Program-made: the position numbers and the translations under genes
The notes under the pieces: generated by a model
What the model was told of the DNA's origin: nothing
Seen by the model: only the letters and a program-made list of their open reading frames with translations
Databases searched by the model: none
Shown: piece after piece, positions 1,260 through 54,612 of the stretch
Layout of the letters: each line of letters begins with the position of its first letter
How positions within the stretch are numbered: the stretch's first letter is position 1
Sequence record: PZ049338.1
Source of the DNA: a phage
Strand: one strand, 5' to 3'
DNA: 64,000 bases

Positions 1260-1649
1260 TTACGAGTTGCCATGAGTGATTACCTTAACCAGAGTGTTAA
1301 CGTGAATTGAAGTAACGTCGCCAGTTTCCAGAACTTTGCAGCGAATTTCGTCGAACGTGCTGTCAATTTCAAGAACTAAATAAGTTTCTTGATTATCACA
1401 ATGACGATGGTCACATGGACGGCAAACATCATTGACTGACAGCGCGCCAATGGCAATTGGTTTTACTTCATCGGATGGACGCAGACGGCACGCAGCATAG
1501 GCCGGGAACTTTGCAACAGTCTTGCTGATTTCATTGACAGCCAGAACATTGTCATGCTCGCCATACATACGGATGCAAACGTAGACAGTATCATCACTGC
1601 CTAGACTGAATCGGTCGCCTAAATTCAATTCGAACATTTCACGTTTCAT
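1260..1649 (-). CDS. hypothetical protein (129 aa)
   Basis: ORF track. Confidence 0.55.
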   Translation of the reverse strand: MKREMFELNLGDRFSLGSDDTVYVCIRMYGEHDNVLAVNEISKTVAKFPAYAACRLRPSDEVKPIAIGALSVNDVCRPCDHRHCDNQETYLVLEIDSTFDEIRCKVLETGDVTSIHVNTLVKVITHGNS

Positions 1650-1662
1650 AAATCCACCTGAA

Positions 1663-1827
1663 TTAAGATAATTTCAAATTAGTGCCAGCTACAGTCGCAC
1701 TGATTGCAGGCCATACAGCCAGAATAAAGAAAATACCAGCGATTAAATCACCGCCGAAAAGCCAGAAGAAGGCAGAAAGGAACAGAAAGAACACGCTCAG
1801 GATAATTTTCAATAACGTTTTCATCAT
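1663..1827 (-). CDS. small hydrophobic membrane protein (54 aa)
   Basis: Not in ORF track. ATGATG start at 1827 with GAGAGG Shine-Dalgarno upstream; translation MMKTLLKIILSVFFLFLSAFFWLFGGDLIAGIFFILAVWPAIS... gives two predicted TM segments. Confidence 0.4.
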   Translation of the reverse strand: MMKTLLKIILSVFFLFLSAFFWLFGGDLIAGIFFILAVWPAISATVAGTNLKLS

Positions 1828-1943
1828 GAACCTCTCATTCGTTGTTGGGAATAGTCACAGTAGTTGGCACTGGCGGTAATGATGCCAATACTTGAGCGGC
1901 ATAATCAGCCATGAATTTCATGTACTCAGCAGGTGTAAGCATA

Positions 1944-2153
1944 TTAAAACCCCCACACGTTATTGTAGTAAGCATCGCCAGACGGACGGGATGAATCAAG
2001 TCGTGACAAATCATCACGGCGCTTAATACGGGCTTTCATTGCAGCACGGGCGGCAGCACGCTTTTTATAGCTTGCCTTGTTCTTGCCACGGGGCACAGCT
2101 TGCCCTTTCATTTTCTGCAATGAAATCAAATCGTTATAGCGTTTACTTGCCAT
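1944..2153 (-). CDS. small basic (Arg/Lys-rich) protein (69 aa)
   Basis: ORF track; composition KRAAARAAMKARIKRRDD suggests nucleic-acid binding. Confidence 0.45.
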   Translation of the reverse strand: MASKRYNDLISLQKMKGQAVPRGKNKASYKKRAAARAAMKARIKRRDDLSRLDSSRPSGDAYYNNVWGF

Positions 2154-3466: not shown

Positions 3467-4238
3467 TCGAATCATCACTATTTGCGACTTGTCCAGTCGC
3501 CGGACTGATGCGCGCCTGATGGATACGGGGGCGAGTACCTTTTCACTTTACACATCAAATTTTACTCCCCGACTATCTGCGAATTAAAGATTAATCAGTG
3601 TTAATTGACGCAGTGACACGCCTCAAACGAGATAATCAACCATTGAAATCAATCAAGGCCGATTAAATAAAACTTGTCGTTGTTGTGCTACGTTGTCGCA
3701 TTCTTTATATAATCTTTCGGTAGTCTTAGTTGTGAGTAGGTAGAATTTTCATTCATTCGCTATCACTATTCGATTACGCGGCCTCTCGGCCTATCATCTT
3801 TTCAATCACTAGCCCACTTATTCTATTCAGTGAGATACCAAATTAACACTATACCGACGCTTAGATGTATAGATGATGTTCTAGTCTGGTTAAATCAGTC
3901 TTTACTTTGATGGCAACATGACACGTTGTGTAAACCGCTGGCACTTAAGCCGTCACGCATTGCGTTTTACGCCACCTTTTCAACCTTCCTTGCAAGCCTT
4001 GCGACTTTTAAGGTCGGGGCAAACTACTCCGGCTAAGTATTCAGTGTCTTATGTTTCCCACTGTTACCCGCTTTCGTCAATAAGCCGTAATTTAAAACCA
4101 TCCGTTAATCAGGTATGATTGCCACATTGTCGGGGGGAAGTATCCGACTGATGTTTACCGTTGGTTATACGGCGGGCTATTGCCCCTTAAGGTGCGGCCT
4201 ATGTGGTAGGCTGCCTTTGATGGGTAATGATTAACCTA

Positions 4239-4248
4239 TCCCATCTAT
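4239..4248 (+). promoter_or_regulatory. TCCCATCTAT motif copy 1
   Basis: exact 10-mer, repeated 4 times in the control region. Confidence 0.35.
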
Positions 4249-4269
4249 TTACTACTGGATAACTAATCT

Positions 4270-4292
4270 AGTTAATCCACATATATTAAGAG
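4270..4292 (-). promoter_or_regulatory. 23-bp repeated element, inverted copy (CTCTTAATATATGTGGATTAACT on minus strand)
   Basis: 1 mismatch to copies at 25156-25178 and 47913-47935. Confidence 0.4.
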
Positions 4293-4315
4293 ATAATCCC
4301 TTAATACGTCCTACT

Positions 4316-4351
4316 TAAAACATTCTAGGTTATCCCTTCCTACCTTGTCAA
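4316..4351 (-). promoter_or_regulatory. sigma70-type promoter P1 (leftward): -35 TTGACA 4351-4346, -10 TAGAAT 4327-4322, 18-nt spacer
   Basis: hexamers read directly; AT-rich upstream. Confidence 0.5.
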
Positions 4352-4426
4352 CCTTACTTAGAAAATTCTTTCTTCTGGTTGACTCACCTGATAGTTACTT
4401 GGCTATTCAGCTTCACTATCTGGTAT

Positions 4427-4463
4427 GTGGTAGATTATAGGTTTAACCTTTCTACCTTGTCAA
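4427..4463 (-). promoter_or_regulatory. sigma70-type promoter P2 (leftward): -35 TTGACA 4463-4458, -10 TATAAT 4439-4434, 18-nt spacer
   Basis: consensus hexamers; shares CTACCTTGTCAA context with P1; AT-rich UP-like region. Confidence 0.6.
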
Positions 4464-4683
4464 TAAGATATTTTAATTTATCTTGCTGACCTTTACTACC
4501 TATCAGGCTTTCGCGTTGTTGCTGCGTCGTCCTGATATGATTAACTATACGCAATCTTTTCAGATATGCAAACTAATATTTTAATTATTTTCTAACTTTC
4601 TTTCATCTCACTGATTTATAACGGATTATTTCTTGATATTCTTTCTTGATTCAGTGGATAAGATACGGGATACGGCTTATCTA

Positions 4684-4693
4684 TCCCATCTAT
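4684..4693 (+). promoter_or_regulatory. TCCCATCTAT motif copy 2
   Basis: exact 10-mer. Confidence 0.35.
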
Positions 4694-4894
4694 AGCGTCA
4701 CCTTTCCACCTGGACAAATTGGAACATCAATCACCTTATCTATTCCCTACCTTTCCAGCTCATAGATTCATGCCTGATTGATGATCTTTCTTGTGAGCTG
4801 GAAGCTAAGAGATAACACCGCATGAATTAAAACTAGATAAAGGGCACTAGATAGAAACATGCGGAACGTTATCCCATACGTCTTAATTGCTATT

Positions 4895-4932
4895 ACACGG
4901 AAGAAAGGAAAGGAAGAAAGGAAGAAAGGAAG
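4895..4932 (+). repeat. polypurine tract (GGAAGAAAGGAAAGGAAGAAAGGAAGAAAGGAAGA)
   Basis: read directly. Confidence 0.7.
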
Positions 4933-5040
4933 ATACACCATACGGATTAATGCTTATCAAACTATCGTCGGGTAACGGTGCAATGATTAAGATTGATGCG
5001 ACCAATGGTCGTGTTATGACCTGCGGTCATGCGTACCTAT

Positions 5041-5198
5041 TATCAAAGTCAACAATCAAACGATGATTATCAAAGACGATTATCAAACGATAACTATCAA
5101 AGACGATTATCAAACGATAACCATCAAAGGATAACTATCAAAGGATAACTATCAAAGGATAACTATCAAAGGATAACTATCAAAGGATAACTATCAAA
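5041..5198. repeat. tandem array, about 12 units of 13-14 bp with core TATCAAAG/C (5 perfect GGATAACTATCAAA units at 5129-5198)
   Basis: read directly; iteron-like. Confidence 0.85.
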
Positions 5199-5803
5199 GG
5201 CTGGCATTTTAAACACCGACGTTTTAGCCTCACAAAATAACGGGAAGAAATATAGCTCAGGATACTTACTATTAGTAAGAACATAACCATGCTGGTTATT
5301 ATTACCATGCTATCTATGCGATGGCTTATCATTAGGTAGCTAACTATAACATCGTGCATCATATTCCATTGGTATCATTAGATGACTAATCATGTGCGTG
5401 CATAGTATATCACTTGAGATAATAACGCATGAATACTATATCACTTCCCATTATCAGCGGAGGTATATTAATCCCGTGAACTAATAGCCAACTAATTACT
5501 TATGATATAGTTGCCAATGTTATTAATAGATGAGGTATGGTATCATTTGTATATTAATAATAAGCAAGCTATCTATTCACTGGATGCAATTACAGTATTG
5601 TGCTTCATCCAATAGGCTGTATAATCGTTGTTACATTGTTAACGGTATATGTGCCGACCCACTTCCCCCTTTTTAAAAGTTGTGTGCGCAGCTAGCCCCC
5701 TATACCACCGCGTGAGAGTATGAGAATGAGGATACCCTAACCAATTAATGGGTGAGAGTGATTGCCCGTGGGTATGACCTCCCATCAGACAGTACTCATG
5801 ACC

Positions 5804-5813
5804 TCCCATCTAT
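5804..5813 (+). promoter_or_regulatory. TCCCATCTAT motif copy 3 (GACCTCCCATC also at 5776-5786)
   Basis: exact 10-mer. Confidence 0.35.
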
Positions 5814-5872
5814 CAGTGTCAGTAGAGGCCGAAGGCCTTGGTCTTACCAAAGGTAAGTGACTTCCCATCTAT

Positions 5873-5882
5873 TTTCACTTTC
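5873..5882 (+). promoter_or_regulatory. TCCCATCTAT motif copy 4
   Basis: exact 10-mer. Confidence 0.35.
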
Positions 5883-5896
5883 TTTCAGTGTAAACA

Positions 5897-5920
5897 GTGT
5901 AAATCTGTAAGAAAATTGAA
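5897..5920 (+). promoter_or_regulatory. repeat TTCAGTGTAA-N-TCTGTAA copy 1 (candidate late promoter or packaging-related element)
   Basis: near-identical copy at 6168-6188; TAATCTGTAAG also at 12433-12443 upstream of capsid gene. Confidence 0.3.
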
Positions 5921-6167
5921 AATTTTGAACTAAAGTTCATGTACGAAGGAGATAGAGATTGATAAGAGATTCTTAAACAGTTTCTTATATATCTCCTTCT
6001 TATCCATTCTTATATATCCTCTCTTCTCTCCTCTATAAAAGCCCCTCTTATATTTAAAAATCCATAAACCAATTACGCTGAACAAGAAGAAAGTATAAAG
6101 GAGGTTATGACCTTCCATCTGATTGATAAGATGAGTACCCATCAACTATTTTAATCTTTTCAGTGTA

Positions 6168-12580: not shown

Positions 12581-13546
12581 ATGGCAGATACTACTTTAGT
12601 TTCTTATGACCTGAATGGTAAGAAACTTTCCTTTGCAAACTGGATTTCTAACCTGTCTCCTACCGAGACCCCGTTCGTTTCCATGACTGGCAAAGAAGCA
12701 ATTAATCAGACTCTGTTCCAATGGCAGACTGATACGCTGGAAACCGCTAACCCGAACAACGCAGTTGTTGAAGGTTCTGCTGCTGAAGCTCCAGTTCGTA
12801 GCTCTACCACTGTACTGAACAACGTTACTCAGATTCTGCGTAAAGTGGTTCGTGTTTCTGATACCGCAAACGCTCTGGCGAACTACGGTCGTGGTCAGGA
12901 ACTCCAGTACCAGATGGAAAAAGCTGGTAAAGAAATCAAGCGTGACCTCGAAGTTGCTCTGCTGCGTAACGGCGCTAAAGTTGACGGTAACGGCACTACT
13001 GCTCGTAAGACCGCTGGCTTTACTGCTCTGGTTGCTGCTAAAGGTGTAGCTGACCCGGACACTGGTGCTGTTGTTCATAAAGAGACTGCTGTTAAGTCTA
13101 AGATTTCTGAAGCAGAACTGTTTGACCTGACGTACAACCTGTACCTGTCTGGTTCTAACGCGAACATCATCATGTTCCACCCGAAACACGCAAGCTTCTT
13201 CGCTTCCCTGATGGACACTCCGGCTGCTGGTACTAACCGCATGAAGATGTTCGACGGTAGCGATACTAAGTTTAACCAGTATGTTTCTAGCGTAGTTGAC
13301 CCGCTGGGTCAGTTGTACAAGCTGATTCCTAACCGTTGGATGGATGAGACTGAGATCTACTTCTTCACTCCTTCTGACTGGGATGCTGCTCGAATGGATT
13401 GGGGTAGTCGTGGTACTACCACTGTTGCTGGTGCTCACGAACACGCATTGCGTATTACTGGTGGTATCTTCTCTCAAGGTGATAACCAGAAGCACAACAA
13501 CATTCAACCATTCATTACTGTATATATGTGGCGTCGCATTTCTTAA
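12581..13546 (+). CDS. major capsid protein (321 aa)
   Basis: position after scaffold, GAGGAG SD, size typical; not motif-verified. Confidence 0.65.
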   Translation: MADTTLVSYDLNGKKLSFANWISNLSPTETPFVSMTGKEAINQTLFQWQTDTLETANPNNAVVEGSAAEAPVRSSTTVLNNVTQILRKVVRVSDTANALANYGRGQELQYQMEKAGKEIKRDLEVALLRNGAKVDGNGTTARKTAGFTALVAAKGVADPDTGAVVHKETAVKSKISEAELFDLTYNLYLSGSNANIIMFHPKHASFFASLMDTPAAGTNRMKMFDGSDTKFNQYVSSVVDPLGQLYKLIPNRWMDETEIYFFTPSDWDAARMDWGSRGTTTVAGAHEHALRITGGIFSQGDNQKHNNIQPFITVYMWRRIS

Positions 13547-13559
13547 TAGGAGTTAGTCC

Positions 13560-15266: not shown

Positions 15267-15490
15267 TGGCTGCAATCGACAGGACAAAACAACCCTATCG
15301 TATTTACAAACCACTCTTCCTAGATGAAGACCAGATTAAGATGGACTTAGACCGAGAGTTTGAGTCCATCTCTCAGGCACTCATTTGGGTAACGAACAAT
15401 ATGCTTATAATTGTTGATGCGGTCAATCCTCTTCTGATTGCTGCTGGTAAAGCACCTATTGTTCTTGAATATCCTAAGACGAATAGCTAA
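15266..15490 (+). CDS. hypothetical protein (74 aa), TAATG coupled
   Basis: ORF track. Confidence 0.45.
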   Translation: MAAIDRTKQPYRIYKPLFLDEDQIKMDLDREFESISQALIWVTNNMLIIVDAVNPLLIAAGKAPIVLEYPKTNS

Positions 15491-15502
15491 GGAGCTAATA
15501 AA

Positions 15503-16735: not shown

Positions 16736-16754
16736 GAGCCTTCGGGCTCTTTTC
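16735..16754 (+). terminator. intrinsic terminator (AGAGCC ttcg GGCTCT + TTTTC)
   Basis: hairpin with UUCG loop and T-run directly after stop codon. Confidence 0.65.
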
Positions 16755-16770
16755 TTATAGGAGAATAGAA

Positions 16771-17631: not shown

Positions 17632-17642
17632 GGAGAGATTAG

Positions 17643-19840: not shown

Positions 19841-19855
19841 TATTGGAGATGATAA

Positions 19856-22800
19856 ATGAATTTTGTGACTGACCCTAAATTGCTTGAGGAGTTAAACGCA
19901 GGATTCAATCCACAGGGGGCTTCGGCCCCTTCGGTTGATTCCCAAACTCAAACCGCTCCACAGGAAGCAGAAACTAACTGGGGTATTTACGCTAAAGAAG
20001 ATGGTTCCATTATGGACACTATCGGTTCTGGTTTGACCAGGATGGGGCGTGCTACCGCAGCAGCTATGGTTCCTAGTGATGATGAGGACATGTCGGATTA
20101 CGCATTAGCTCGCGCTCGACGTGCTAACGCAGAGTACAAAGCTGATGCTGAAAAGCTTGGTGTTGCAGGTCAGGTAGTTGCAGGTGCTGCAACATATGCC
20201 CCTGTTATTGCCGCTGGTATTGCTAACCCTCTGGCAGGTGCTGCTATGATGGGTGGTGCTACTACTGCTGACTCTCTTGCTGCACAGATTGATAACAATC
20301 AAGATTTAGACCTTAACAGTGCAATTGCTGCCGGTGCTGCATCAGCAGGTGTCGACCTTGCTACAATGGGACTCGCCTCTCGTGGCATGAATGTTGCTAA
20401 GGAATTAACATCCCCTGTTAAGCGTGCAATTGCCGGTACTGGTATACAAGCAACTCAGGGTGCTACTTCTAACGCAGCAGCTCAAGCTGCTATTAACTTA
20501 GCATCTGGTCGTCCTTGGAATGAAGGTCTGATAGAAGCTGCTGCCATTGGTGGTGTTGCAGGTGGTGGTTTACATGCTACCCTCTCTGGATTGAACCACT
20601 CTGCAGGCACTCCACCTAATAAGGGTGGTCAGAAGGCTACAGAAGACCAAGTTAAGTTCGAAACCAAAGATGGGATTACTCCTACGGGTGATTATCGTAA
20701 TCAAGTGTACGAATACGCAAACCAACGTCACCAGTATGATGAAGACATTAACAACATCGACATTGATGATACTAATGGTTTGGATGCCGCTGTAAATGCT
20801 AAAGTAGGCATGGCACTTAACAACGGTACTGCCTCTGCTATTCAGGGCACTGCTAAGCTGTTAGATAAGTTTAAAGTACCTAAGACTATTAACTTCTGGG
20901 ATATGGATGTTGGTAATGGTATCAGTAGCCAACCTGTTGGTAACATAGCTCGCGATTGGTTCAATTTCAGTGACAAAGACCTGTTGAAAGCTGGTGAATC
21001 TATTGGCCGTGCCAAGCAGACATTGACTGGACGTACCAAAGCACTGGAACAGGGTGAGTTTGAGGAATCCTTCCTTCGTCAGATGAAAGACTCTTACGAT
21101 AAGGCCCAAAACGACATCTTAGGGCGTGCAGAATCCAACTGGCGTACCGTCGATAACATTCGTTCACAAATGACCGGTGCAGAGCGTCCTATGCGTGATT
21201 CTCTGAATATCCTGTCTCGTAACCTTGAAGACTACTCTAAGATGGTACGTGATGCCAACTTAGGTAAAGCCCCTAACACCGATACTCTCCGTGCTGTTGT
21301 AGAAAGCATTGAAGTTAATGCTAAGAAGACTGGACTTCGTGACAAGCTGAAATCTCTTGTAGATGACGCTGAGCAGTTTGATGGTATCACAAACTTAGAG
21401 TCTGCACTGTTGTTTGCAAAAGGTGCTCAGAAGGTTGCTCCTGGCATCCATCGTGCTAACCCTGACCCACTGAAAGCATCAAGCCAGAAGGCTGATATGC
21501 TGGATGCTGCTGCTGTTGCAACAGGTCAGTTCTGGTTACCTGTGGCTCGTCGTGGTCTTCGTGAGATTGGCGGTAAACGTTCTCAAGCTCGTTTGCGTGG
21601 TGAGAAGGCTCAAGGTGAAGTTGTTTCTCAATCCTTGGCTCGTGACCCACGTCCTGATTTTGTTAACCAAGCTGCTCAGCGTGGTGATTTCAAAGGTGCT
21701 GCTGATGAAGCTGCTGCTGATTTGGAATCAATGGGTATTTCTACTGGTCAGAAAGATGTATGGGGTCGTGAAGCCGAGGCTGCACCTGTACAAGAGACTG
21801 CACCAATCCAAGAAGCCCCGGTTACTCCGGAACCTAAAGTCGATGTTTGGGGTCGTCCTCGTGAGTTCACAGACCTGACTGGTCGTGGAGTACGTGAGGC
21901 AGAAGCAGCTAAGGCTGAAGCAGAGGCCGCTAACGCACCTGTGGTAGACCCAGAAGCAGAAGCCCAGATAAGGTTCAACCTTGGTGAAAGACTCGCTCAG
22001 GATGCTCGTGTGGACGCTCAGAGACGTGCTCCTGCACCAGAACCTGAACCTGCATTCACGGATAAAGACTCTCGTCGTGTAGATGACTTGCAAACCAAAC
22101 AGAACACCGATGGTTTAACATCCTCTGAAGCTCGTGAACTTGAGTCACTTATTCAGCGTAAGCCTACGCCTGAAGTTAAGGAAGCAGAACCTGAAGCCCC
22201 TAAGAAAGAAGGTGTTAAAGCTTCTGAACTGGCTCGTAAACCCATCTCTGATAAGATTAAAGAGTTCAAGGAGTTGTCTCCTGAAGCTAAGAAAGACCCT
22301 CAACTGATTAACGAGTTTACTCGTAACAGACGTCTTCTCTCTGATGCTGATAAAGCTGTATCCTCTAAGGCTACTGCTATGTCTGTTCCTCAGGAAGATA
22401 TTTGGAGAATCATTGAACGTCAAGGTGGCTTGGAGTCTGTATTTAAGGATGGTCACTCTGCTGAACGTGGTCTGAATATTCTTATGCAGAAAGATAAGAT
22501 TGACTTGCAACGTAAAGCTGATATCGAAGCTAAGAATGCCGAAGATGCCGCTGACAGTGTTAATACTAAATCAGGGAAAGGTGAGACAACCTCTACTGAT
22601 GAAGTTGATACTGGAAAGGTAATCGAAGACATGAAGAAAGACTTCATCTCTAAAGGTGTTTCTGGTGAGACATTTGAAGCTGCACAAGTCCGCGCTGAAC
22701 AGACCCTTGGCCCAGATTATACACCAACGCAGTTAGCTAACGTTGTTAAATTACTGGCAAAAGAGAAAGCGGCTAAGGCTCGTGAAGAAGCTAAGAAGAC

Positions 22801-36062: not shown

Positions 36063-36524
36063 TTAGTTACAATACCTTCCATTATGATTCCTTAATCGGT
36101 AATAAATTGCGGATTCAGTTCTGCCCAATCGTGCAGCTATAGTTTTAACAGGAACACCTGCTCTCCACATCTCAAAGCAATCGTCATGACTTTCTCTGTA
36201 ACGATTTACGTTTGTTTCAGTAGCATGTTCAGAGCCTTCAAGAATTTCAAGGTGTTCTGGGTTACAGCAAGCCCTGTTCCTGCATTTGTGATTAATCTCA
36301 CAACCTTCAGGGATTGAGCCGTTAAGTTCTTCCCACACTAACCTGTGGTACATCACCCAAGTATTTTTACCAATATTCTTGCGGAAGTACCCATCACTGT
36401 TAAGTTTATGAGAAACGGGGATTTTACACCCCGTATTAGTAATATCAAATACAAGTTTCTTTGGCATATTCAATGGGTATGGAACCAGCTTGCACCAAGC
36501 ATTGAGTCTGAAGCTAATGGACAT
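36063..36524 (-). CDS. HNH homing-type endonuclease
   Basis: INHKCRNRACCNPEHLEILEGSEHATETN HNH-like core; overlaps 3' end of polymerase gene. Confidence 0.65.
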   Translation of the reverse strand: MSISFRLNAWCKLVPYPLNMPKKLVFDITNTGCKIPVSHKLNSDGYFRKNIGKNTWVMYHRLVWEELNGSIPEGCEINHKCRNRACCNPEHLEILEGSEHATETNVNRYRESHDDCFEMWRAGVPVKTIAARLGRTESAIYYRLRNHNGRYCN

Positions 36525-38314
36525 TCCATATTCAACGACTCTCCAGCTTTTTTAACACACTGGTCAATCAACTCTCTTAATTTAACTACATCTTTGGTGG
36601 CGCAAGTGAACTGCATCTCATCGTGCATCATAATGACCTGATTTGCAAACAGCTTATCACGTTTAACCCAAGAAATCAGGTAGCAGTCAGCAATCTTCAT
36701 AACAATAGAACCAGCAGACTGGAGCATTGTATTCAGTGCTTTATGGGTCATCACCTCACCGGAGTTAGGGTCACGACGCATAATCAACTTACGACCATCA
36801 ATAGCTGGAACCCAACCATGTTTCGCTGCGAATGTTTGTACCCACTCCATAAGAACTGGAATACAAGGACATTCTTTCAGGAACTTATCACGAGCTTCCT
36901 GACCTTCGGCAACACCACCACCTAACTGAGCACCTAAGTTCGCATTACCAGCGCCATAGAGGAAAGCATAGATAAACGTCTTAGCCTGCTTACGAGTTGC
37001 TAGACCTGCAAGCTTCTGGTTGTGCGAGTGGATATCACCATTCAGAAGAACTTCACGATACTCTAGAGCGGAGTCGAGTGCTTTCTGATAATACTCAGCC
37101 TCTCGTGTCTTACCAGCTTCGAGAGCTTCCTCAAGCAGCATACGAGATACAGCAATGAGGTAGTGAGTAAGCATACGAAGTTCAAGACCTGCACCATCCC
37201 CACCTACGAAAGCCTGTTGGCCCTCTGGGATAAGGTATGTACAGTGTCCTACATCTTCCCACTTCTTACCATTGAACTCCTGCATGATGTTAGTCAGTGG
37301 CTTACGACGAAACTTGCCAGACTCAATCATTTTCTTGGTGAGCTTAGGAACCAGAATGCCACGACGACCCATCTCAGAGTCACAGTAGTCACCCTTAAAT
37401 AAGTGACGACATTCTTCACCCAGCAACGCACCAGCAGCAGGAATGTTAACAATTGTCTTGTGACGCATACGAGCAGTTGGTGTAGCGCATGGGTTGGCTT
37501 CACCAGACAGCTTACCATCAGCACGTACTTGAGCAATCAAACCTTCTAAGAGGGAACGACGATGCGCAAGCTGCATACGATGCTTCAAGAGCGTCAATGC
37601 CTGACTCTCATCCTCACCAACTGAATCAAAAGAATCATCAGTGATTTGTGGAGAAGTCGGCCAGAACTGTTTCAGTAGAAGTTTCTTCTTAATGGCATCG
37701 AAGTTAGGAACCTTTCTGCTCAGGTCGAAACCTAAAGCAACCAGAATTGCCTTCATGTAACCCTTCGTCTGGTCACGGAAGTGTGTATCAATAAACCCGT
37801 TAACAGCGTTGGTGAATGCAAGTCTGTCCTCAGAATCACACTGTTCATTGATGAACTTAGCGTATGAGGTTTTCTCCAAACGTTTGCGATACTGCCAAAC
37901 TTGGAAAGGTGTCTTCTTCTCGTTCCACTCAGTAGGAACCCAACCCATATCCATCATGACTTTCTTCAGTCGAGATGTTTTACCAGGGTCGAATGGTGTA
38001 TACCATACAGCGGAGAATGGCCCACTAACATCTTCAGAAGAGAGTCCATGAATGTCCATGTACTTCTGAACGAATGCTTTAGGTTGACCGTTCAACTTAA
38101 ACGGAGCTTTATACTCTGAACCCTTGTGCATCATAGGAGGAAGCAAAGGGATTAATTCGAGGTCAATCTTGAGGATACGCTCATTCAATGAGTGAACCAA
38201 CCAAGAAGCACCACGCTTATCAAAGTTACAGCCATGTTTCCACTGATTCGAAATCAAATCAGCGACTTTCTGTTCTAACAGGAATGGTTTAGTCCAATCC
38301 GGCTTGATATCCAT
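36470..38314 (-). CDS. family A DNA polymerase, polymerase domain only (614 aa)
   Basis: motif A DGAGLELR, motif B RKQAKTFIYAFLYG, motif C HDE; no 3'-5' exo motifs in this ORF. Confidence 0.85.
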   Translation of the reverse strand: MDIKPDWTKPFLLEQKVADLISNQWKHGCNFDKRGASWLVHSLNERILKIDLELIPLLPPMMHKGSEYKAPFKLNGQPKAFVQKYMDIHGLSSEDVSGPFSAVWYTPFDPGKTSRLKKVMMDMGWVPTEWNEKKTPFQVWQYRKRLEKTSYAKFINEQCDSEDRLAFTNAVNGFIDTHFRDQTKGYMKAILVALGFDLSRKVPNFDAIKKKLLLKQFWPTSPQITDDSFDSVGEDESQALTLLKHRMQLAHRRSLLEGLIAQVRADGKLSGEANPCATPTARMRHKTIVNIPAAGALLGEECRHLFKGDYCDSEMGRRGILVPKLTKKMIESGKFRRKPLTNIMQEFNGKKWEDVGHCTYLIPEGQQAFVGGDGAGLELRMLTHYLIAVSRMLLEEALEAGKTREAEYYQKALDSALEYREVLLNGDIHSHNQKLAGLATRKQAKTFIYAFLYGAGNANLGAQLGGGVAEGQEARDKFLKECPCIPVLMEWVQTFAAKHGWVPAIDGRKLIMRRDPNSGEVMTHKALNTMLQSAGSIVMKIADCYLISWVKRDKLFANQVIMMHDEMQFTCATKDVVKLRELIDQCVKKAGESLNMECPLASDSMLGASWFHTH

Positions 38315-39044: not shown

Positions 39045-39401
39045 TTAATCCTTCTTCTTCTTGCTCTTAGGCTTGCTCACAGGTAAACGGGACTTAGCGC
39101 CCTTACGTCCACCTGCGGCCTTACCTTTTGAGCTACCAGACTTACCACCAGCAGACATATTCTCGCTGGCATCACGTAAACGCAAATTACTGCGGTCATT
39201 GGAGCCACCATCTTTAACTGTCTTCTTGTGGTCAACGTGTACAGATGTTGGCAATTTTCTACCGATGCTCTTTTCCATCTCTCGACGGGCACGGTGTCGC
39301 ATTGCATCCTTAGACTTCTTACCAACGCCGGTATCACCACGCTTTATAGCAGTGATACGTTCTTGTGCGTAGTTTCGTACATAACCCGGTGAACTAGGCA
39401 T
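39045..39401 (-). CDS. basic protein with HNH-like motif (HVDHKK...GGSNDRSNLRL)
   Basis: motif read by eye; candidate small HNH nuclease. Confidence 0.45.
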   Translation of the reverse strand: MPSSPGYVRNYAQERITAIKRGDTGVGKKSKDAMRHRARREMEKSIGRKLPTSVHVDHKKTVKDGGSNDRSNLRLRDASENMSAGGKSGSSKGKAAGGRKGAKSRLPVSKPKSKKKKD

Positions 39402-39629: not shown

Positions 39630-39795
39630 CCGGCATTGTTTCTTTACAACACGGGCATATGTAATAGTGTGAATAGTCCTCAGTGCTTACGCGTTTCATG
39701 GGAACAAAACACCAATCACATTCAATACTTTTCACACCGTACATAATGAATACCTTATTTAAGACTCTTCTCAACTCTACGAGTAATATACTCAC
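39574..39795 (-). CDS. small Zn-ribbon protein (73 aa)
   Basis: CDWC...CPCC. Confidence 0.45.
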   Translation of the reverse strand: MSILLVELRRVLNKVFIMYGVKSIECDWCFVPMKRVSTEDYSHYYICPCCKETMPGERFDEYEYEWGDYNGQE

Positions 39796-40024
39796 GAGCT
39801 ACTTTAGGATTACATTCCATTAAGAGGTCTTCAACATCTTCGTTGATTTCACTCTTCGTTACAGTTAACTGATGAAGATACTTACCCTGAATAATCATTG
39901 CAATCTGCAGAGCTTCATCAAAACTTGATTGATTGACAGCCTCTTGTGAGGCCATAACTGATTGGATGATTTGGTTTACATCAAATTCAACCAAGGAGCC
40001 ATCATCTTTCTGATATTTTACCAT
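39755..40024 (-). CDS. hypothetical protein (89 aa)
   Basis: ORF track. Confidence 0.45.
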   Translation of the reverse strand: MVKYQKDDGSLVEFDVNQIIQSVMASQEAVNQSSFDEALQIAMIIQGKYLHQLTVTKSEINEDVEDLLMECNPKVAREYITRRVEKSLK

Positions 40025-40032
40025 TCACTACC

Positions 40033-40482
40033 TCAGCGACCAGAGCGTACAAAGTATGCCAGCTTGTCGATGGCAGCTACTAATTCTTGCAAGATGCTAA
40101 CAGTCACATCATCCTCTGTATCAAACAGACGAGCCACATGACCAGTTATTGTTTCCAGAGTTTCGACCATATCAGACAACATCTCTGAACTGTCGTAGCT
40201 GTCAACACCTTCACTGAACCAGCGAACTTCATGATAATACCCTGCCGTTGATTTGACAGGATGCTGTAGGCCACGTAGCCGCTCAGCAACAATATCAGAC
40301 CATTCATCAGCAACAGTATCAATATCTTCGAACAGTTTATGGAGACTTCCAAAGTTGGCTCCGGTTACGTTCCAATGATAATTCTCTGCCTTGATGGACA
40401 GTAATTTGAGGTTGGCAACCACTGGATTCAATGGGTGCAGATTATCTTCACCACTTTGACGTGACGGTCTTGGAGATAACAT
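40033..40482 (-). CDS. Dps-like ferritin-fold protein
   Basis: YHWNVTGANFGSLHKLFEDI and DIVAERLRGL align by eye with recalled E. coli Dps (HWNMRGANFIAVHEML, DTMAERAVQLGG). Confidence 0.6.
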   Translation of the reverse strand: MLSPRPSRQSGEDNLHPLNPVVANLKLLSIKAENYHWNVTGANFGSLHKLFEDIDTVADEWSDIVAERLRGLQHPVKSTAGYYHEVRWFSEGVDSYDSSEMLSDMVETLETITGHVARLFDTEDDVTVSILQELVAAIDKLAYFVRSGR

Positions 40483-41138
40483 TACTCAGTTTCCTTAATA
40501 GTTGCTTTCAAGGCCGACCAAGCGACCGGATAAAGGTCAGTCATGATTGCATCAAGTTGCTGTGCAAACAAACGAACCTCGTATTGAGCATGAGTGCTCG
40601 AACGTTGACGGTATACTTCAAACCAACCATACAGTGAACCAGTCCATACCCATTCTGTAACCATCCCTTGCGGGAGTACAAAGCGAGCCTGCTCTGGTGC
40701 AATGAACTTAATCAGCTTATCGTAGGCAAGTAATGCTGCTTCATATGCGTAATTATACAACACAAGAGCTTCATATTTCTTAACACCTTCAAGAAGTACA
40801 CCACCGCCATCATGCAAGTTATCAGGTCGTGCAAAGATTTCCTTAGGAATGAACACTTCGACATTACCATCTTTATATCGACGGCTCATTTCGTTCCAAG
40901 AAAATCCAACCTGATGCTTACCTAGCTGGCGAGCGATTGCGATTGGGGCTTTACAGCGAAGGGTCACTGTTGCGTGCCGGAATGGGGTTACATGACGTTC
41001 ACGAGCTAAGAACTTGACCAAGCGAACATCTCGCTCATTCAACTCACCTTCTCGTGTTACACCATAAGATACTCGTGCTGCGTTAACAACTGAAGTATCA
41101 TCACCCATTAAATCTACTAATTGCGCTTCAATAGTCAT
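40482..41138 (-). CDS. thyX: ThyX-like flavin-dependent thymidylate synthase homologue (signature appears divergent)
   Basis: ARQLGKHQVGFSWNEMSRRY resembles ThyX motif region, but canonical RHR seems replaced by KHQ. Confidence 0.6.
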   Translation of the reverse strand: MTIEAQLVDLMGDDTSVVNAARVSYGVTREGELNERDVRLVKFLARERHVTPFRHATVTLRCKAPIAIARQLGKHQVGFSWNEMSRRYKDGNVEVFIPKEIFARPDNLHDGGGVLLEGVKKYEALVLYNYAYEAALLAYDKLIKFIAPEQARFVLPQGMVTEWVWTGSLYGWFEVYRQRSSTHAQYEVRLFAQQLDAIMTDLYPVAWSALKATIKETE

Positions 41139-42163: not shown

Positions 42164-42429
42164 CAGCGAGTCTCTTCTAAGTCTCGGTTAACACCCACAT
42201 TACCATCAAGGTTAGCCTGCACTTGAGCAGAAATAACAATCAGGTTCTTAGGGTAGGAGAGGGTTGTTTTACCAGAGCTAAGCACATGGATTCGAACTTT
42301 CAGAGGAGTAACATCCACAACTCGGGCTATTTCTAGCCCTTGGTTGTATTTACCATTACCCCAGACAACAATATCGTCCAGTCGAATCACCCGGTGCAGC
42401 TTATCACGGTGATTGTGTGACAGTAACAT
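42163..42429 (-). CDS. hypothetical protein (88 aa)
   Basis: ORF track. Confidence 0.45.
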   Translation of the reverse strand: MLLSHNHRDKLHRVIRLDDIVVWGNGKYNQGLEIARVVDVTPLKVRIHVLSSGKTTLSYPKNLIVISAQVQANLDGNVGVNRDLEETR

Positions 42430-42719
42430 TAATCAAGACCTCGCACTGTAGAGAGGATGAAATTACGCAGCATGTCTTCAGTCTGCATCCCTGTTTTGAA
42501 ACCTACTGGCTTCTTGTTTTCATCAAACACGATGATGGTTGGGACACCACGGATGCCAAAGGTACGAGCTTCTTCGCGTACTCCGTCGTCTTCGATGCTA
42601 CGGGATTCAAAAGTAAATCCCTCTTCTTCCAGTTCATCTTGAACTTTCTTGAAGATAGGCTCGATTGCTTTGCAAGGAGCACAGGAAGTACCAAAGTATT
42701 TAATTACAGAGTAAGCCAT
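42429..42719 (-). CDS. thioredoxin
   Basis: CxxC active site SCAPC in thioredoxin-sized (96 aa) protein. Confidence 0.75.
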   Translation of the reverse strand: MAYSVIKYFGTSCAPCKAIEPIFKKVQDELEEEGFTFESRSIEDDGVREEARTFGIRGVPTIIVFDENKKPVGFKTGMQTEDMLRNFILSTVRGLD

Positions 42720-43477
42720 TATTCACCACCTTCGTTGTCTAATTCCATTGCTTTAACCACTGCCTTACAGAAGCCGCTTCGAACGATATCGTCAGAAGTA
42801 CCTTCAACAACAGCAGCATAGTCGCCCAGAGCGTGACGGTTGATAAAATCAATCGCCCAATCCAGACCATTTTCACCACCCATATCATTCTGCTCGGAAT
42901 CCCCGATACAGAACAGCTTAGAGTTCTCACCCAAGCGAGTCATGATTGAGTACATTTCATCAGGTTTGGTATTCTGAGATTCATCCACAATGACCACAGC
43001 GTTCTCGAAAGAACGACCACGAACATATTCCAGTGGTACGAATTCAATGTTACCAAGACCCATCTGGCACTCATAGAAGCCATGACCGTAACGACCTTTG
43101 ATTACATCTACCATAGGCATCAGATACGGTTCAAACTTCTCTTTCAGAGTGCCGGGCAGGAGACCAAGAGATTTACCCATACCAACCGAAGGTCGGCTCA
43201 GTACAATCTTCTGAATCTTGTTCTGCTTAAGCCAATCTGCGGCTTGACTCATGAGTACAAAAGTCTTACCGCAACCAGCAGGAGCGTCAACAAACACAAC
43301 CTGAGCTTCCATCATGCTAGTATGAAGTTCACGTTGGAACTCATTCTTAGGGATGATAGGCTTGATAATGTTTGCTGTCTCAAACTCACGACGAGCGTGT
43401 TGGCTATTACGACGAACAGTTTCTTCGCGCAGTGCTTCACGACGTAATTCACGACGACTAGGCTTAAGTTTCTTCAT
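42719..43477 (-). CDS. phoH: PhoH-like ATPase
   Basis: Walker A DAPAGCGKTF; overall PhoH-like pattern. Confidence 0.75.
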   Translation of the reverse strand: MKKLKPSRRELRREALREETVRRNSQHARREFETANIIKPIIPKNEFQRELHTSMMEAQVVFVDAPAGCGKTFVLMSQAADWLKQNKIQKIVLSRPSVGMGKSLGLLPGTLKEKFEPYLMPMVDVIKGRYGHGFYECQMGLGNIEFVPLEYVRGRSFENAVVIVDESQNTKPDEMYSIMTRLGENSKLFCIGDSEQNDMGGENGLDWAIDFINRHALGDYAAVVEGTSDDIVRSGFCKAVVKAMELDNEGGE

Positions 43478-44081
43478 TATTCAACTCCTCAGTGTGACCA
43501 GAGCCAGCATATGCTTGAGTAGCACCCTGCTGACCGTTGTAGTTACCTTTAACAGCGTAAGAGTCGTTACCAACGTCTTCGTGTTCAAAGAATACCATCT
43601 GACCAATGCGCATACCGGGTTTGATAAGGAGTCGGTGATACTTGTTCATATTCTTGAACTCCATAGTAAGCTGTGCGCCATGCCAACCGGCATCTGCCCA
43701 ACCTGCCATCATGTGTTCAAGGAAGCAACGAGCCACTGTAGAACGTAATACAAACTGACTGGAGATAGTATTTGGTAAGTTAAATGTCTCAACAGAGTGA
43801 GCCAAGAAACACTGACCCGGTTCGATAATCAAACCAGTCTCAGGGATAATCTGTTTGATGAACTTAGGAGATTGCTTTGCAGCAATATCAATCGGTTCAG
43901 AATGAACACCCGGAACAGCTTCAGCCATACCAGAAAGGTCTTGGTATTGCCATGCAGGGGCTTCGACCAGAATCTCGTTACCAATACGGATATCAATACT
44001 CGCTGAGTTTACGTTCTCATGCAGAGCGTCAATAACATTTTCATCAATCAGTTGGTGCAATCGTGTAGAAGAGAGTAACAT
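43464..44081 (-). CDS. dcd: dCTP deaminase
   Basis: SIDIRIGNE, RSTVARCFL, KPGMRIGQMVFFE, YNGQQGA align with recalled E. coli Dcd. Confidence 0.75.
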   Translation of the reverse strand: MLLSSTRLHQLIDENVIDALHENVNSASIDIRIGNEILVEAPAWQYQDLSGMAEAVPGVHSEPIDIAAKQSPKFIKQIIPETGLIIEPGQCFLAHSVETFNLPNTISSQFVLRSTVARCFLEHMMAGWADAGWHGAQLTMEFKNMNKYHRLLIKPGMRIGQMVFFEHEDVGNDSYAVKGNYNGQQGATQAYAGSGHTEELNNEET

Positions 44082-44762: not shown

Positions 44763-44771
44763 TAATACACC

Positions 44772-46568
44772 TTAGAATGGTCGACTATCATCACGACTGA
44801 CTTCATCAGAGTCAGGCTCCTCTCCCGGGATAGAGAAAGGATTCTTAGGGTCATACTCATCAGCAGTACGCTGTCTCAATCGACCTGTAACTGGGTTATA
44901 GGAAGTTGGGACAATACCTGTCTGACCGAAGTTACGGTCTTTCAGGAGACGAATCTGAGACAAGTTACGAGCATCACCATCTGCCTGCTTGTTACGCTCA
45001 AAGCCCAGAATTAACTGGGAGAATCGCATAAGAGCACGCGAACCTGTGAACTGCACTTCCTGAACCTGACCACCTTCCTCGTGCGGAGCACCAGTTTTAG
45101 GTGGGTTCAAGTGACTGAATACGAAACATGTGAACTCCAGTTCGTTACACAGTCCAGCCAGTTCTACAGCAATACGAGCAACTTCGGTGTTAATCTCAGT
45201 CGCTGATAAGTGTGATACCAGTGCGGTGATGTTATCTAAGAAGATGAACTTCACACCATGCTCCACAACCCAGAAACGCATACAGCGTTTGATATCTTCC
45301 CAATCATTCTGACCAAAGTTCCGGTAAAGGAACAGATGGCCATCATACTTCAGAGCTTCACTCTTAAGCAGTTCAGGGTCGAACTCAACATCTGGGCGAT
45401 GGAAAGGTATATTAGCAGATTTACCTGCGATGTTTTTGATTGTGTTACCTACAGTCTCTTCCAACATGAAAGCGCCCACTTTCTCTTTGTGGACGTTAAT
45501 GAGGTGAGCACTAAGTTCGTGAGCAAGCAGTGTTTTACCACCACCCACACCACCACCAATTGCAATCACTTCACCATATCGGAGACCGAAGGTTAACTCT
45601 GTAAGACCTTCCCAAGGGAATGATAAACCCCACTCAGGCTTCTTCAGCGCATCTTCCAGACACTCAGCTACAGTCGTTGAGCCAGCCGGAGATTCTTTTG
45701 CAGCATTGAAGCGTAAGCAGTTATTAAGTTCGAGGTCACGACCGTCCATGAGGAGGTCATTAGCGTCCTTAATTGGAGCACCATCTTTACGGAACCCTTT
45801 AGGGATTCGGGCAATCTTAATGTTCGGATACATCGCTCGAATCTTGTTCACAGCATCATCACCAGCTTCATCGTTATCCATGCAGACAACAACTTCAGCG
45901 AATGATTCTACGAATGCACGGTCACGAGAGAACGCAGCCGCTGCTGATTTCGAGCCATCCGGTAAAGAAACACATGCTGGTTTGTATGTACTCTTAGAGT
46001 TCTCTGTCAATACCTGAAAACCAGACATTGCACTGAGTTCGTCTTCAAATACAAACAACTTACCTGTGTACACATCACCAAGACGTGCTTGGGACATACC
46101 GAAGAAACTACAACCTGATGCTGCACCTACAGCATAAAAACCTTTAGGTTCTAAGGTGCGAACTTTGTAAGCACGGATTGCTCCGTCCTTTTCCTTCGGG
46201 TAAAACTGAGAGATAGGTTCCCGGTTAGTGGATGAAAGACCAATACGAACACCAAAACGTTCGGCAACTTCTTTCTTCACACCACGAATGGTGCAGTTCT
46301 GAATAGGAAGCTCTTGGACTTCCGCTAAACGTTCTTGTACTTCTTCCTCGGTCAGTTCACGGAATTCATGACGAACTCCTTCCCACTTCTCGCGGTTACC
46401 TTCTTCAACCTGTTCGTAAAAACCATCACGACTACAGTAAACCCACTGCTCGCCGGTCTCAACATTTTCCCAATGCTGAAGATGGTTGCCAGTTCGGTCA
46501 TGGCCTGCTGCCGTACAGGTTGGACATGCAGAATCACCAAGGATTCTTTTGTTTCCATAAACTTTCAT
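44772..46568 (-). CDS. primase-helicase (Zn-finger + TOPRIM + DnaB-like helicase)
   Basis: N-terminal CPTC Zn finger, TOPRIM-like CMDNDEAGDD, Walker A GGGVGGGKT. Confidence 0.8.
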   Translation of the reverse strand: MKVYGNKRILGDSACPTCTAAGHDRTGNHLQHWENVETGEQWVYCSRDGFYEQVEEGNREKWEGVRHEFRELTEEEVQERLAEVQELPIQNCTIRGVKKEVAERFGVRIGLSSTNREPISQFYPKEKDGAIRAYKVRTLEPKGFYAVGAASGCSFFGMSQARLGDVYTGKLFVFEDELSAMSGFQVLTENSKSTYKPACVSLPDGSKSAAAAFSRDRAFVESFAEVVVCMDNDEAGDDAVNKIRAMYPNIKIARIPKGFRKDGAPIKDANDLLMDGRDLELNNCLRFNAAKESPAGSTTVAECLEDALKKPEWGLSFPWEGLTELTFGLRYGEVIAIGGGVGGGKTLLAHELSAHLINVHKEKVGAFMLEETVGNTIKNIAGKSANIPFHRPDVEFDPELLKSEALKYDGHLFLYRNFGQNDWEDIKRCMRFWVVEHGVKFIFLDNITALVSHLSATEINTEVARIAVELAGLCNELEFTCFVFSHLNPPKTGAPHEEGGQVQEVQFTGSRALMRFSQLILGFERNKQADGDARNLSQIRLLKDRNFGQTGIVPTSYNPVTGRLRQRTADEYDPKNPFSIPGEEPDSDEVSRDDSRPF

Positions 46569-52944: not shown

Positions 52945-54612
52945 TTAAGCGATATGGTCGTTATCTGGCTCATAATCATCGTCTTCTTCAATATCGTCAT
53001 CTTCAGATGATTCATACATATCGTAATCACCACCACGACGAGGTACAGGGACTTCATTACGAGCTTCACGGTTCTCTTCATTACGCATGTCTACGAACTG
53101 ACGGTAGAAGTTTCCGAACAGACGAGAACGTTGAGCCTGATTGGTTTCGTAGATGAACCAATCAATGTCAAAAGTGATGCCAAGCATATCGCACTTCCAA
53201 CGCAACTCAGCTAACCAACGGAATGTCAGCATTGGAGGGCGGGTGTTCTCCAACAACCAAGTGCCATTACTGCGGGTTTCCAGATTGATTCGCAGGTGTT
53301 CCCAATAGCGAGGTTCCAGATAGAAATTTGTACGATGACTTGAATCATCCTCGGCAGATTTCACAGTGTGAACGTAAGCACTGAGTTTGCGTAGGGTTGA
53401 CATTGAAATCACTTCATATGCCAGTTTGTAGCCAATGTCCAAATCTTCTTCGAAGTTCTGAACAACCTTCGGCAGACCCTTACGAATTGCGCTGTGAATC
53501 GGCAATGTTGATAGGTACTCAATGAAGTCACTATCAGTACCTTCGAAGTTCACCGCCAGTTCCTTCAGTGATAAGAAGCGGTTAGTCAGGCGAATAATGC
53601 TGCCCTTACGCCACTTGGCCTCACTAATACGGAATTCAACTGAACCAAAACTACTCATCGGTAACAAGTTCAGTGAAGTGTACTTATCCCATTCACGGGT
53701 TACACGATTAGTGAAATCGTGGTTGTCCAGATGCCAGTTGTTAGCCAGAGTAGCTAACTGCTCCTGTGCAAAACCAAGAGCAACACAGAAGTTGTTCTTG
53801 TAACGATGCCAACCAGAGCAGCGGAACAGTACACGCTCATAAACAATATACGCAAGAATCATGCGCTTCAGTTGAGCGACACTCAAATCACGTACATCAA
53901 TGTGAACGTGGGTGGAGCAACGCCAAGATGTATCTGGCGTATGACGGAACAGGAAGGAGTCGATTTCCAGGGATGCTGCATAGAGGTCACGACCACCCCA
54001 AGGGGATGAACATACAAACTCCATACCTGAGTTACGAAGTGAACCATCTAGCTTTGCTTCCCAATACTGGAAAGTTGGCTCATCACTGAGGTGAATCTCT
54101 TCGAGTTCAATCTCAATACCTGCCAGATGTGTTCCAACAATTAAAGGATGACCCTGAATAGTTGGGTAGGTTGCACGTTGCCCGTAAATCTGTGCAATAT
54201 TCATGTTATTCGATACCTCTACGTTTCCGGAGATGAAGCCGTTGCGGCTTGGATTATTAACGCTTCCGTGTCTCTGGTTACCAATCTCTTCCCGTAGATT
54301 GTCTCGTGTGTATGCGTGTTGACCTCTTTGAAGTCCAGTGAAGAGGCTAGGTCTCTGGCTTTCGCGCTCCATTCTCCGCTGTCTTGCTTGTTCATCAGCA
54401 CGGTTATTCAACCACGTCATGAAGGCACTATCTTCTGACTGAGCTACCCCCTGATTCACTATTGGCACAGGTGGCTCTTCGAAAGCTTGAGATACAACAC
54501 TTTCTGTTACATTCGGAGGTTGATAATTAGCCCATCTGTCCATGTGTACAGTGGCTTCAACGTCGAAGAAACCCCCAGTTAATCCTGGGGAGTTGTTACT
54601 GTTATTTGGCAC
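52945..54612 (-). CDS. glutamine-synthetase-fold carboxylate-amine ligase (GCS2/YbdK-like amidoligase), 555 aa
   Basis: GIEIELEE, THVHIDV, FGSVEFRIS match recalled YbdK motifs GIELEM, HVHVG, FGTVEVRVMD. Confidence 0.55.
   Translation of the reverse strand: MPNNSNNSPGLTGGFFDVEATVHMDRWANYQPPNVTESVVSQAFEEPPVPIVNQGVAQSEDSAFMTWLNNRADEQARQRRMERESQRPSLFTGLQRGQHAYTRDNLREEIGNQRHGSVNNPSRNGFISGNVEVSNNMNIAQIYGQRATYPTIQGHPLIVGTHLAGIEIELEEIHLSDEPTFQYWEAKLDGSLRNSGMEFVCSSPWGGRDLYAASLEIDSFLFRHTPDTSWRCSTHVHIDVRDLSVAQLKRMILAYIVYERVLFRCSGWHRYKNNFCVALGFAQEQLATLANNWHLDNHDFTNRVTREWDKYTSLNLLPMSSFGSVEFRISEAKWRKGSIIRLTNRFLSLKELAVNFEGTDSDFIEYLSTLPIHSAIRKGLPKVVQNFEEDLDIGYKLAYEVISMSTLRKLSAYVHTVKSAEDDSSHRTNFYLEPRYWEHLRINLETRSNGTWLLENTRPPMLTFRWLAELRWKCDMLGITFDIDWFIYETNQAQRSRLFGNFYRQFVDMRNEENREARNEVPVPRRGGDYDMYESSEDDDIEEDDDYEPDNDHIA

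Follow-up and report, generated by a model that had tools for sequence, protein, structure and literature searches.

A Dps-family mini-ferritin gene next to thyX in a phage related to prolate C3-morphotype podophages

The locus described here lies in a 64,000-nucleotide stretch of phage DNA (sequence record PZ049338.1), hereafter the window, in which positions 40033..40482 of the minus strand carry a Dps-family (mini-ferritin) gene. The assignment draws on the open reading frame (ORF) call, the Pfam family PF00210, PHROG 3636, Dps matches in the PDB, an AlphaFold2 model and Foldseek searches. The ORF runs from ATG to stop, spans this interval exactly and encodes a protein of 149 amino acids with a mass of 16.8 kDa and an isoelectric point of 4.8. 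An earlier note, made from the letters alone, had placed a Dps-like ferritin-fold protein here; its interval agrees with the ORF to the base, and the strand, which it had left unstated, is minus. The peptide that it quoted, YHWNVTGANFGSLHKLFEDI, is real and corresponds to residues 35–54 of the translation. The gene overlaps the upstream thyX by a single base, common to the thyX stop and the Dps start (TAATG), and AAGGA sits a few bases 5' of the start. Because of this overlap, and because the N-terminal motif M-L/I-x-x-R/K-P recurs in the orthologues, the gene boundaries were considered sound. Plus-strand ORFs of 41–68 amino acids that overlap the gene were taken as mechanical by-products. A scan for sigma-70-like promoters returned 13 sites, compared to 9.2 ± 3.1 in shuffled sequence, and none was well placed upstream on the minus strand; given no promoter signal of its own, the gene was read as a member of an operon.

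Profile, sequence and fold searches all led to Dps, which bears out the identity that had first been proposed by eye. The protein matched the Pfam ferritin-like domain PF00210 with E = 8.2e-10 (39.2 bits against a gathering cut-off of 24.5 bits) and, across nearly its whole length, PHROG 3636 ('DNA binding protein') with E = 1.9e-33. In a phmmer search against PDB sequences, the 60 matches listed were only Dps-family chains or Dps-scaffold chimeras. The best of these was 1n1q, deposited as 'DPS Protein' (E = 2.8e-13, residues 18–144), followed by Pseudomonas aeruginosa PA0962 (8ff9; 2.6e-12) and Dlp-2 (1jig; 1.7e-11), and Escherichia coli Dps (1dps) was matched at E = 1.6e-6 to 4e-6. The NCBIfam matches were to Dps models only, all under their equivalog cut-offs (48.8 vs. 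114 bits). The earlier note had allowed that a profile search might place the protein in another four-helix-bundle family, and this did not occur.

The AlphaFold2 model, built from a shallow alignment, had a mean predicted local distance difference test (pLDDT) score of 81.7 and a predicted template modelling score of 0.77. Its helices (residues 18–38, 44–71, 80–92, 98–117 and 125–147) are arranged as in Dps, in a four-helix bundle that has a short additional BC helix, and the model stops after helix D, with the fifth (E) helix absent. When the model was searched against the PDB with Foldseek, the top 50 matches were all Dps chains, with template modelling (TM) scores of 0.71–0.79. Ferritin and bacterioferritin, which form 24-mers, were rejected as candidates because no such chain was present among the 60 listed sequence matches or the top 50 fold matches; the sole match containing bacterioferritin was an engineered Dps–bacterioferritin fusion, 5xgo. 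The window protein shares with bacterial Dps (1n1q, 8ff9, 1qgh, 1dps) a bundle of ~150 amino acids, the BC helix, the ferroxidase ligands and their tryptophan, and full-length alignments to these proteins reached E = 3e-13 to 4e-6 and TM scores of 0.73–0.79 at only 21–30% identity. The ORF encodes a Dps-family mini-ferritin.

The ferroxidase-centre segment, with the codons for H36, W37, H48, E52, D63 and E67, lies at 40282..40377 on the minus strand. It was delimited from two alignments (A1 and A3) of the window Dps with eight phage orthologues and bacterial Dps, the latter comprising E. coli K-12 Dps (taken from the genome), three metagenomic proteins (A1) and Listeria innocua Dps (A3), for which the sequence used was identical to PDB 1qgh. 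The phage orthologues used for residue conservation were derived by tblastn, and IMG/VR loci were excluded from this evidence because they had been retrieved with patterns built on the same residues. H36, W37, H48, D63 and E67 were invariant in both alignments, that is, in all nine phage proteins and all five bacterial Dps aligned. The matching columns hold H51, W52, H63, D78 and E82 in E. coli Dps and H31, W32, H43, D58 and E62 in L. innocua Dps, which are the inter-subunit ferroxidase ligands and the neighboring tryptophan of the family. E52 aligns with the second-shell aspartate (E. coli D67, L. innocua D47). The earlier note had regarded absence of the ferroxidase histidine, aspartate and glutamate residues as grounds for abandoning the proposal; both histidines, the aspartate and the glutamate are present and invariant.

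The 3 kb surrounding the gene are 97.0% identical to Salmonella phage PKM.Hi.22.6 (Hi226) and 96.2% identical to Salmonella phage PKM.Lu.22.1 (Lu221), and the remaining window is 90–98% identical to PKM.Hi.22.6. Both belong to the Grimontviridae, are podophages of the prolate C3 morphotype and depend on conjugative plasmids such as the IncN plasmid pKM101, infecting only cells that carry them (PMC10782986). This group is related to phages 7-11 and phiEco32. With Lu221 and Hi226 as its closest relatives, at 95–98% nucleotide identity, the window is itself probably from a plasmid-dependent phage. The nearest GenBank orthologue of the window Dps, WKV17116.1 from Hi226, is 95% identical; the two genes are separated by 11 synonymous and 8 non-synonymous differences (a ratio of non-synonymous to synonymous substitution rates, dN/dS, of ~0.2), and no substitution falls on any ferroxidase residue. 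The Dps gene is under purifying selection. An exact-sequence lookup did not find the window Dps on record; a 96%-identical relative (P0001) is encoded on metagenomic contigs whose gene order matches that of the window.

Homologues were collected from phage records, IMG/VR and GTDB genome contigs. With tblastn, Dps homologues were found in 140 of 50,697 phage records. Almost all of these records belonged to a single clade, with host genera Escherichia (93), Aeromonas (11), Proteus (8), Salmonella (7), Cronobacter (6) and Shigella (3), for which the capsid protein of the clade gave 95, 11, 8, 7, 6 and 3 in the same order. Isometric LUZ24-like Pseudomonas phages, whose capsid is ~30% identical, had no counterpart in the Dps match list. 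In a neighbor-joining tree of 132 distinct Dps sequences, calculated without support values, the C3-phage proteins grouped together as nine tips, and no other sequence fell within the group. These sequence comparisons identify Dps as a core gene of the C3 podophage clade. The view in the earlier note that Dps homologues are unusual in virulent phages therefore holds for phages overall, but not for this lineage.

The aligned orthologues in which the ligands are invariant were as little as 36–50% identical to the window Dps, and the annotated proteins of phiEco32, SU10, 7-11, pSal-SNUABM-01 and Privateer were 39–51% identical over their full length. The closest cellular Dps proteins found, from diverse non-enteric bacteria, reached at most 35% identity in a non-exhaustive genome scan that covered only contigs with a YHWN[VT][TES]GxxF motif, and E. 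coli Dps was 21–22% identical. This low identity to cellular proteins argues for an old lineage gene and against a recent host capture; capture from an enterobacterial host was rejected on the same grounds, together with the lack of any enterobacterium among the best cellular matches. By these measures, Dps is best described as an old, vertically inherited core gene. An exhaustive phmmer search of 1.84 billion cluster representatives gave 1575 matches at E ≤ 1e-3, 47 at ≤ 1e-10 and 2 at ≤ 1e-30, and a word-indexed protein search, which needs shared 5-mers, gave five matches, two of them close.

The gene family is already documented for the C3 phage clade, and the present finding is a re-identification. 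Since 2008, phiEco32 gp67 has been annotated as 'DNA-binding protein, member of the Dps family', and the proteins 7-11 gp073, that of GAP52 and Privateer gp068 are annotated likewise; pSal-SNUABM-01 gp077 is labelled 'putative DPS protein', and WKV17116.1 'hypothetical protein'. The phiEco32, 7-11, pSal-SNUABM-01 and Privateer proteins and SU10 CDS67 are orthologues belonging to PHROG 3636. In the SU10 paper, a Dps-domain protein was described as common to all five C3 phages then sequenced; CDS67 was assigned to the middle-gene set CDS25–68, and its protein was detected with six peptides and 35.8% coverage (PMC4281155). C3-phage orthologues share with the window the invariant H/W/H/D/E residues, the M-L/I-x-x-R/K-P N-terminus, a Y-F-V-R-S C-terminus and the placement of Dps in a nucleotide-metabolism block. 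Kuravirus Dps proteins differ from the window protein in having an N-terminal extension of ~35 amino acids and no ATP-cone gene alongside.

Dps genes near DNA-metabolism genes have also been reported in Lactobacillus plantarum myophages and in the gut 'Gratiaviridae' and 'Flandersviridae', and the authors proposed protection from iron/peroxide stress during infection (PMC6669764, PMC8008677). In the gut study of this pair (PMC6669764/PMC8008677), Dps was said to be known only in seven Lactobacillus phages, and the phiEco32 group was overlooked. Proteins of Lactobacillus phages Semele and LP65 have the Dps fold, with ~20% identity in fold alignments, and belong to different lineages and hosts. 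A Bacteroides phage Dps was matched at 27% identity in the tblastn search of phage records.

The genes surrounding Dps also lie on the minus strand. Upstream, these encode dCTP deaminase (43464..44081; Pfam DCD, 6e-33), PhoH (42719..43477; Pfam PhoH, 2e-54), thioredoxin (42429..42719; Pfam PF00085, 1e-12) and the flavin-dependent thymidylate synthase ThyX of 218 amino acids (40482..41138; Pfam PF02511, 6e-42). Downstream, a stand-alone ATP-cone protein of 89 amino acids (39755..40024; Pfam PF03477, 1.3e-8) begins 8 nucleotides past the Dps stop, followed by an HNH-like ORF of 118 amino acids (39045..39401; Pfam HNH, E = 0.0016, below the cut-off; PHROG 4590, of unknown function, 1e-35) and a family A DNA polymerase in a single ORF of 614 amino acids (36470..38314). 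The HNH-like ORF has a very lysine-rich C-terminal tail and its protein is identical in Hi226; the annotation of its counterpart in pSal-SNUABM-01 notes similarity to the PacI HNH C-terminal domain.

Thioredoxin and ThyX are neighbors of Dps in all lineages, and the one-base thyX/Dps overlap is also found in phages 7-11 and pSal-SNUABM-01. Among the lineages examined, all those outside Kuravirus have an ATP-cone directly after Dps. This ATP-cone forms the N-terminal part of a complete anaerobic ribonucleotide reductase (NrdD) in GAP52 and BUCT695 and is a separate protein in 7-11, pSal-SNUABM-01, Privateer, the window and LAh_8, the last of which has full NrdD and NrdG as well within 3 kb. In Kuravirus, thioredoxin and ThyX come after Dps, with no adjacent ATP-cone. 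The window ATP-cone protein is 49% and 43% identical to residues 1–86 of NrdD from GAP52 and BUCT695, respectively, and no NrdD catalytic domain or NrdG similarity was found in the window. The protein is identical in Hi226 (four synonymous differences between the genes) and 73% identical in 7-11, and the K-R-D-G nucleotide-binding motif of ATP-cones reads K-D-D-G in the window and A-R-Q-G in 7-11. From these comparisons, the stand-alone ATP-cone gene appears to be maintained.

On balance, we favor the reading that the window protein is a functional Dps dodecamer which removes Fe2+ and H2O2 around replicating phage DNA, and we hold it with moderate confidence. The family, fold, catalytic ligands, purifying selection, core-gene status and operon context were all observed, and expression of orthologous proteins is established in the literature. 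We counted the invariance of the ligands, selection, core status, synteny and the middle-gene expression in SU10 in its favor. By homology, the protein would assemble into a hollow dodecamer with twelve inter-subunit ferroxidase centers, each formed by H36 and H48 of one subunit and D63 and E67 of its two-fold partner, with W37 beside them. Fe2+ would be oxidized at these centers, preferentially with H2O2, and Fe3+ would be stored within the shell. As a predicted middle gene, translationally coupled to ThyX, Dps would be made together with the replication and nucleotide-metabolism enzymes, and both Fenton reagents would be cleared during phage DNA replication. The phage protein would act when the inducible dps response of the host is probably unavailable owing to host shut-off. 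It is in this respect that the window Dps, as a virulent-phage gene with middle expression, would differ from bacterial Dps, which is stationary-phase or OxyR-regulated. A short arginine-containing tail may add weak non-specific DNA binding.

Several observations weigh against this reading. The first concerns iron entry. L. innocua D121, D126 and D130 form the acidic lining of the ferritin-like three-fold pore. Where L. innocua has D130 and E. coli has D146, each of the nine phage proteins has Ser or Asn, and the position of D126 varies among them (Asp, Glu, Pro, Arg). In the window protein, T122 is found at D121, D124 and D125 at D125/D126, and S129 at D130, with an alignment that is uncertain near gaps. 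Ser or Asn in place of this pore aspartate sets the phage proteins apart from both bacterial Dps, and E. coli Dps differs further in its lysine-rich tail; iron entry in phage Dps may therefore be slower or follow another route. Secondly, the BC-helix region (residues 80–95) was modelled with low confidence, as were the first 12 residues and residues 87–92. The NCBIfam scores also imply that the window Dps is not an equivalog of any characterized bacterial Dps. Lastly, our literature search turned up no phage Dps that had been studied biochemically or genetically, and the Privateer authors call the Dps function unverified (PMC7881722). The detection of Dps in CsCl-purified Privateer virions, described next, might indicate a role beyond the cytoplasm of infected cells.

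The alternative that survives best is that Dps is virion cargo, residing in the long prolate head or travelling with the DNA and guarding packaged or entering DNA against damage by iron and peroxide in an encapsulin-like manner; we regard this as rather unlikely. One observation in its favor is that Privateer Dps was found by liquid chromatography–tandem mass spectrometry of whole particles purified in cesium chloride (CsCl), along with ten structural proteins (PMC7881722). A stable dodecamer, possibly DNA-bound, could nevertheless co-purify with particles in CsCl. In addition, a folded dodecamer ~9 nm across could not pass the tail channel of a podovirus. The Dps gene lies in the middle/replication block, away from the head genes, and no capsid-targeting signal or peptide was identified. 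The virion proteomics that the earlier note had suggested has in effect already been run in relatives, with Dps present in a polyethylene glycol (PEG)-precipitated SU10 sample as well as in the CsCl-purified Privateer virions. The SU10 sample also contained DNA polymerase, thioredoxin, PhoH and sigma factor (PMC4281155). We rejected the SU10 mass spectrometry as evidence of virion association since that sample was PEG-precipitated without CsCl purification.

Dps domains within other phage proteins also favor a virion role. Foldseek against BFVD identified Dps folds within phage 'Prohead protease' proteins of 333, 432 and 763 amino acids, and a 'ParB/Sulfiredoxin' protein of 754 amino acids also has a Dps-fold domain (BFVD entries with the Dps fold in large proteins: A0A6J7XDU5, A0A6J7WIS1, A0A6J7WPK9 and A0A6J5LAB8). 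In IMG/VR, UViG_3300027708_000284 (L084) encodes at 3581..5974 a protein of 797 amino acids in which the Dps domain keeps the H/W/H/D/E residues and a Zeta-toxin-like domain matches the PHROG 'minor head protein'; the ORF after this gene has weak head-protease similarity. This suggests that in uncultured phages, head-associated and possibly injected 'polyvalent' proteins carry a mini-ferritin module. The presence of Dps also tracks the prolate C3 clade, and the isometric LUZ24-like relatives are absent from the match list.

Encapsulins, in which a shell of HK97-type capsid fold encloses an iron oxidase of the ferritin superfamily, offer an analogy to these phages without any claim of membership. 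Both combine a shell with a ferritin-type protein, and in Privateer the Dps was recovered in purified virions. Unlike in encapsulins, no targeting peptide was identified for the window Dps and its gene lies outside the head module. In its strongest form, the proposal would make C3 Dps a genuine virion component, an iron/peroxide sink loaded in the prolate head that either stays there or enters with the genome, which we think unlikely. The stand-alone Dps and the Dps fusions to head proteins would then be two solutions to one problem.

A different alternative keeps Dps in the cytoplasm and assigns it to iron/redox housekeeping for nucleotide metabolism. Dps would buffer or donate iron for ribonucleotide reduction, the iron users being the 4Fe-4S activase NrdG and the host di-iron NrdB, or would scavenge H2O2 from ThyX and protect the oxygen-sensitive NrdD. 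ThyX produces H2O2 in an NADPH-oxidase side reaction, and synteny points in the same direction: thioredoxin and ThyX adjoin Dps in all lineages, the ATP-cone comes next after Dps in each non-Kuravirus lineage examined, and in LAh_8 both NrdD and NrdG are encoded within 3 kb of Dps. However, the window is without the NrdD catalytic domain or NrdG, yet its Dps is intact under purifying selection, and Kuraviruses keep Dps without an adjacent ATP-cone. To our knowledge, Dps proteins have no established part as iron donors in Fe-S assembly. Neighboring positions within a compact phage operon say little about a functional link, and synteny is the sole hint here. We consider this role decidedly unlikely to be the main one.

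It was also considered that the protein coats or compacts DNA, in a mainly physical role in which phage DNA would be condensed or protected against host nucleases and iron chemistry would play no part. The N-terminal tail (residues 1–17, MLSPRPSRQSGEDNLHP; 40432..40482, minus strand) is predicted to be disordered, with pLDDT below 50 at residues 1–12. A lysine-rich N-terminal tail mediates DNA binding in E. coli Dps, and the tails of the orthologues, with 3–5 basic residues, are reminiscent of this: R5, K7 and R8 in 7-11, K5, K7 and K11 in GAP52, and five basic residues each in BUCT695 and Privateer. The window tail is the least basic of the set. It contains R5 and R8 only, has no lysine, and carries a net charge of 0, as E12 and D13 offset the two arginines; the protein as a whole is acidic (pI 4.8). 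The GenBank label 'DNA-binding protein' favors coating at first sight but is a transitive annotation with no assay behind it. The strict invariance of four metal ligands implies selection on the catalytic site and not on the shell alone, and PADLOC defence models gave no match in or near the Dps gene. DNA binding by the window Dps is thus possible and weakly supported, and coating or compaction as its main function is very improbable.

That the protein is not Dps at all, being instead a ferritin, bacterioferritin, rubrerythrin, 'integrase' or decaying relic, is scarcely credible: PF00210 is generic for ferritin-like domains and the orthologue is called 'integrase' in at least 12 GenBank records of E. 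coli phages, but the 60 listed PDB sequences and top 50 folds were of Dps type throughout, the ligand pattern is the Dps-specific, inter-subunit one, and the ORF is kept across the clade with dN/dS ~0.2. The 'integrase' label itself was rejected after inspection of QZI79200.1 from phage 101114UKE3, a protein of 188 amino acids that, like the window protein, matches only the Pfam ferritin-like domain. This entry corresponds to 1390..1956 of locus L171 (MZ234017.1), and the error is carried by Kuravirus/Suseptimavirus records.

As a discovery, the gene adds little, given that Dps has been annotated in phiEco32-like and 7-11-like phages since 2008 and a PHROG family exists. The annotations themselves have practical consequences. 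In Hi226 and Lu221, which have attracted interest as a means to remove resistance plasmids, the gene is entered as 'hypothetical', and the 'integrase' mislabel on Kuravirus Dps could flag strictly lytic therapeutic candidates as temperate. Across ~135 sequenced prolate podophages, Dps is universal and vertically inherited and its catalytic site is perfectly conserved, which implies a real fitness role for iron/peroxide control in lytic infection. The Privateer virion detection and the Dps fusions to head proteins further raise the question of whether a mini-ferritin is packaged with phage DNA.

Elsewhere in the 64-kb window, no tRNA and no Rfam family were found. Compared to PKM.Hi.22.6, the window is missing ~8.96 kb (record 13408–22365), a segment that holds genes for proteins of 778 and 962 amino acids, the latter a 'tail formation protein'. 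The junction lies at ~13375–13381 within the ORF 12581..13546 (plus strand), at a microhomology of 7–8 nucleotides, (C/G)TGACTGG. This ORF encodes an in-frame chimera of 321 amino acids that joins the major capsid protein, to about residue 265, with the last ~56 amino acids of a tail-fibre-like protein. By its sequence, the source seems to be a deletion variant or a misassembled sequence, not a viable genome. The window is also without a ~410-bp segment of PKM.Hi.22.6 (record 40257–40666) and its ~383-bp endonuclease VII gene (record 54176–54558); besides the polymerase gene, the window position noted for these differences is about 44771–44774. Conversely, the DNA polymerase of PKM.Hi.22.6 is annotated in two pieces, with an extra ~609 bp between them (record 45765–46373) that contains two small ORFs and may represent a mobile insertion in this relative.

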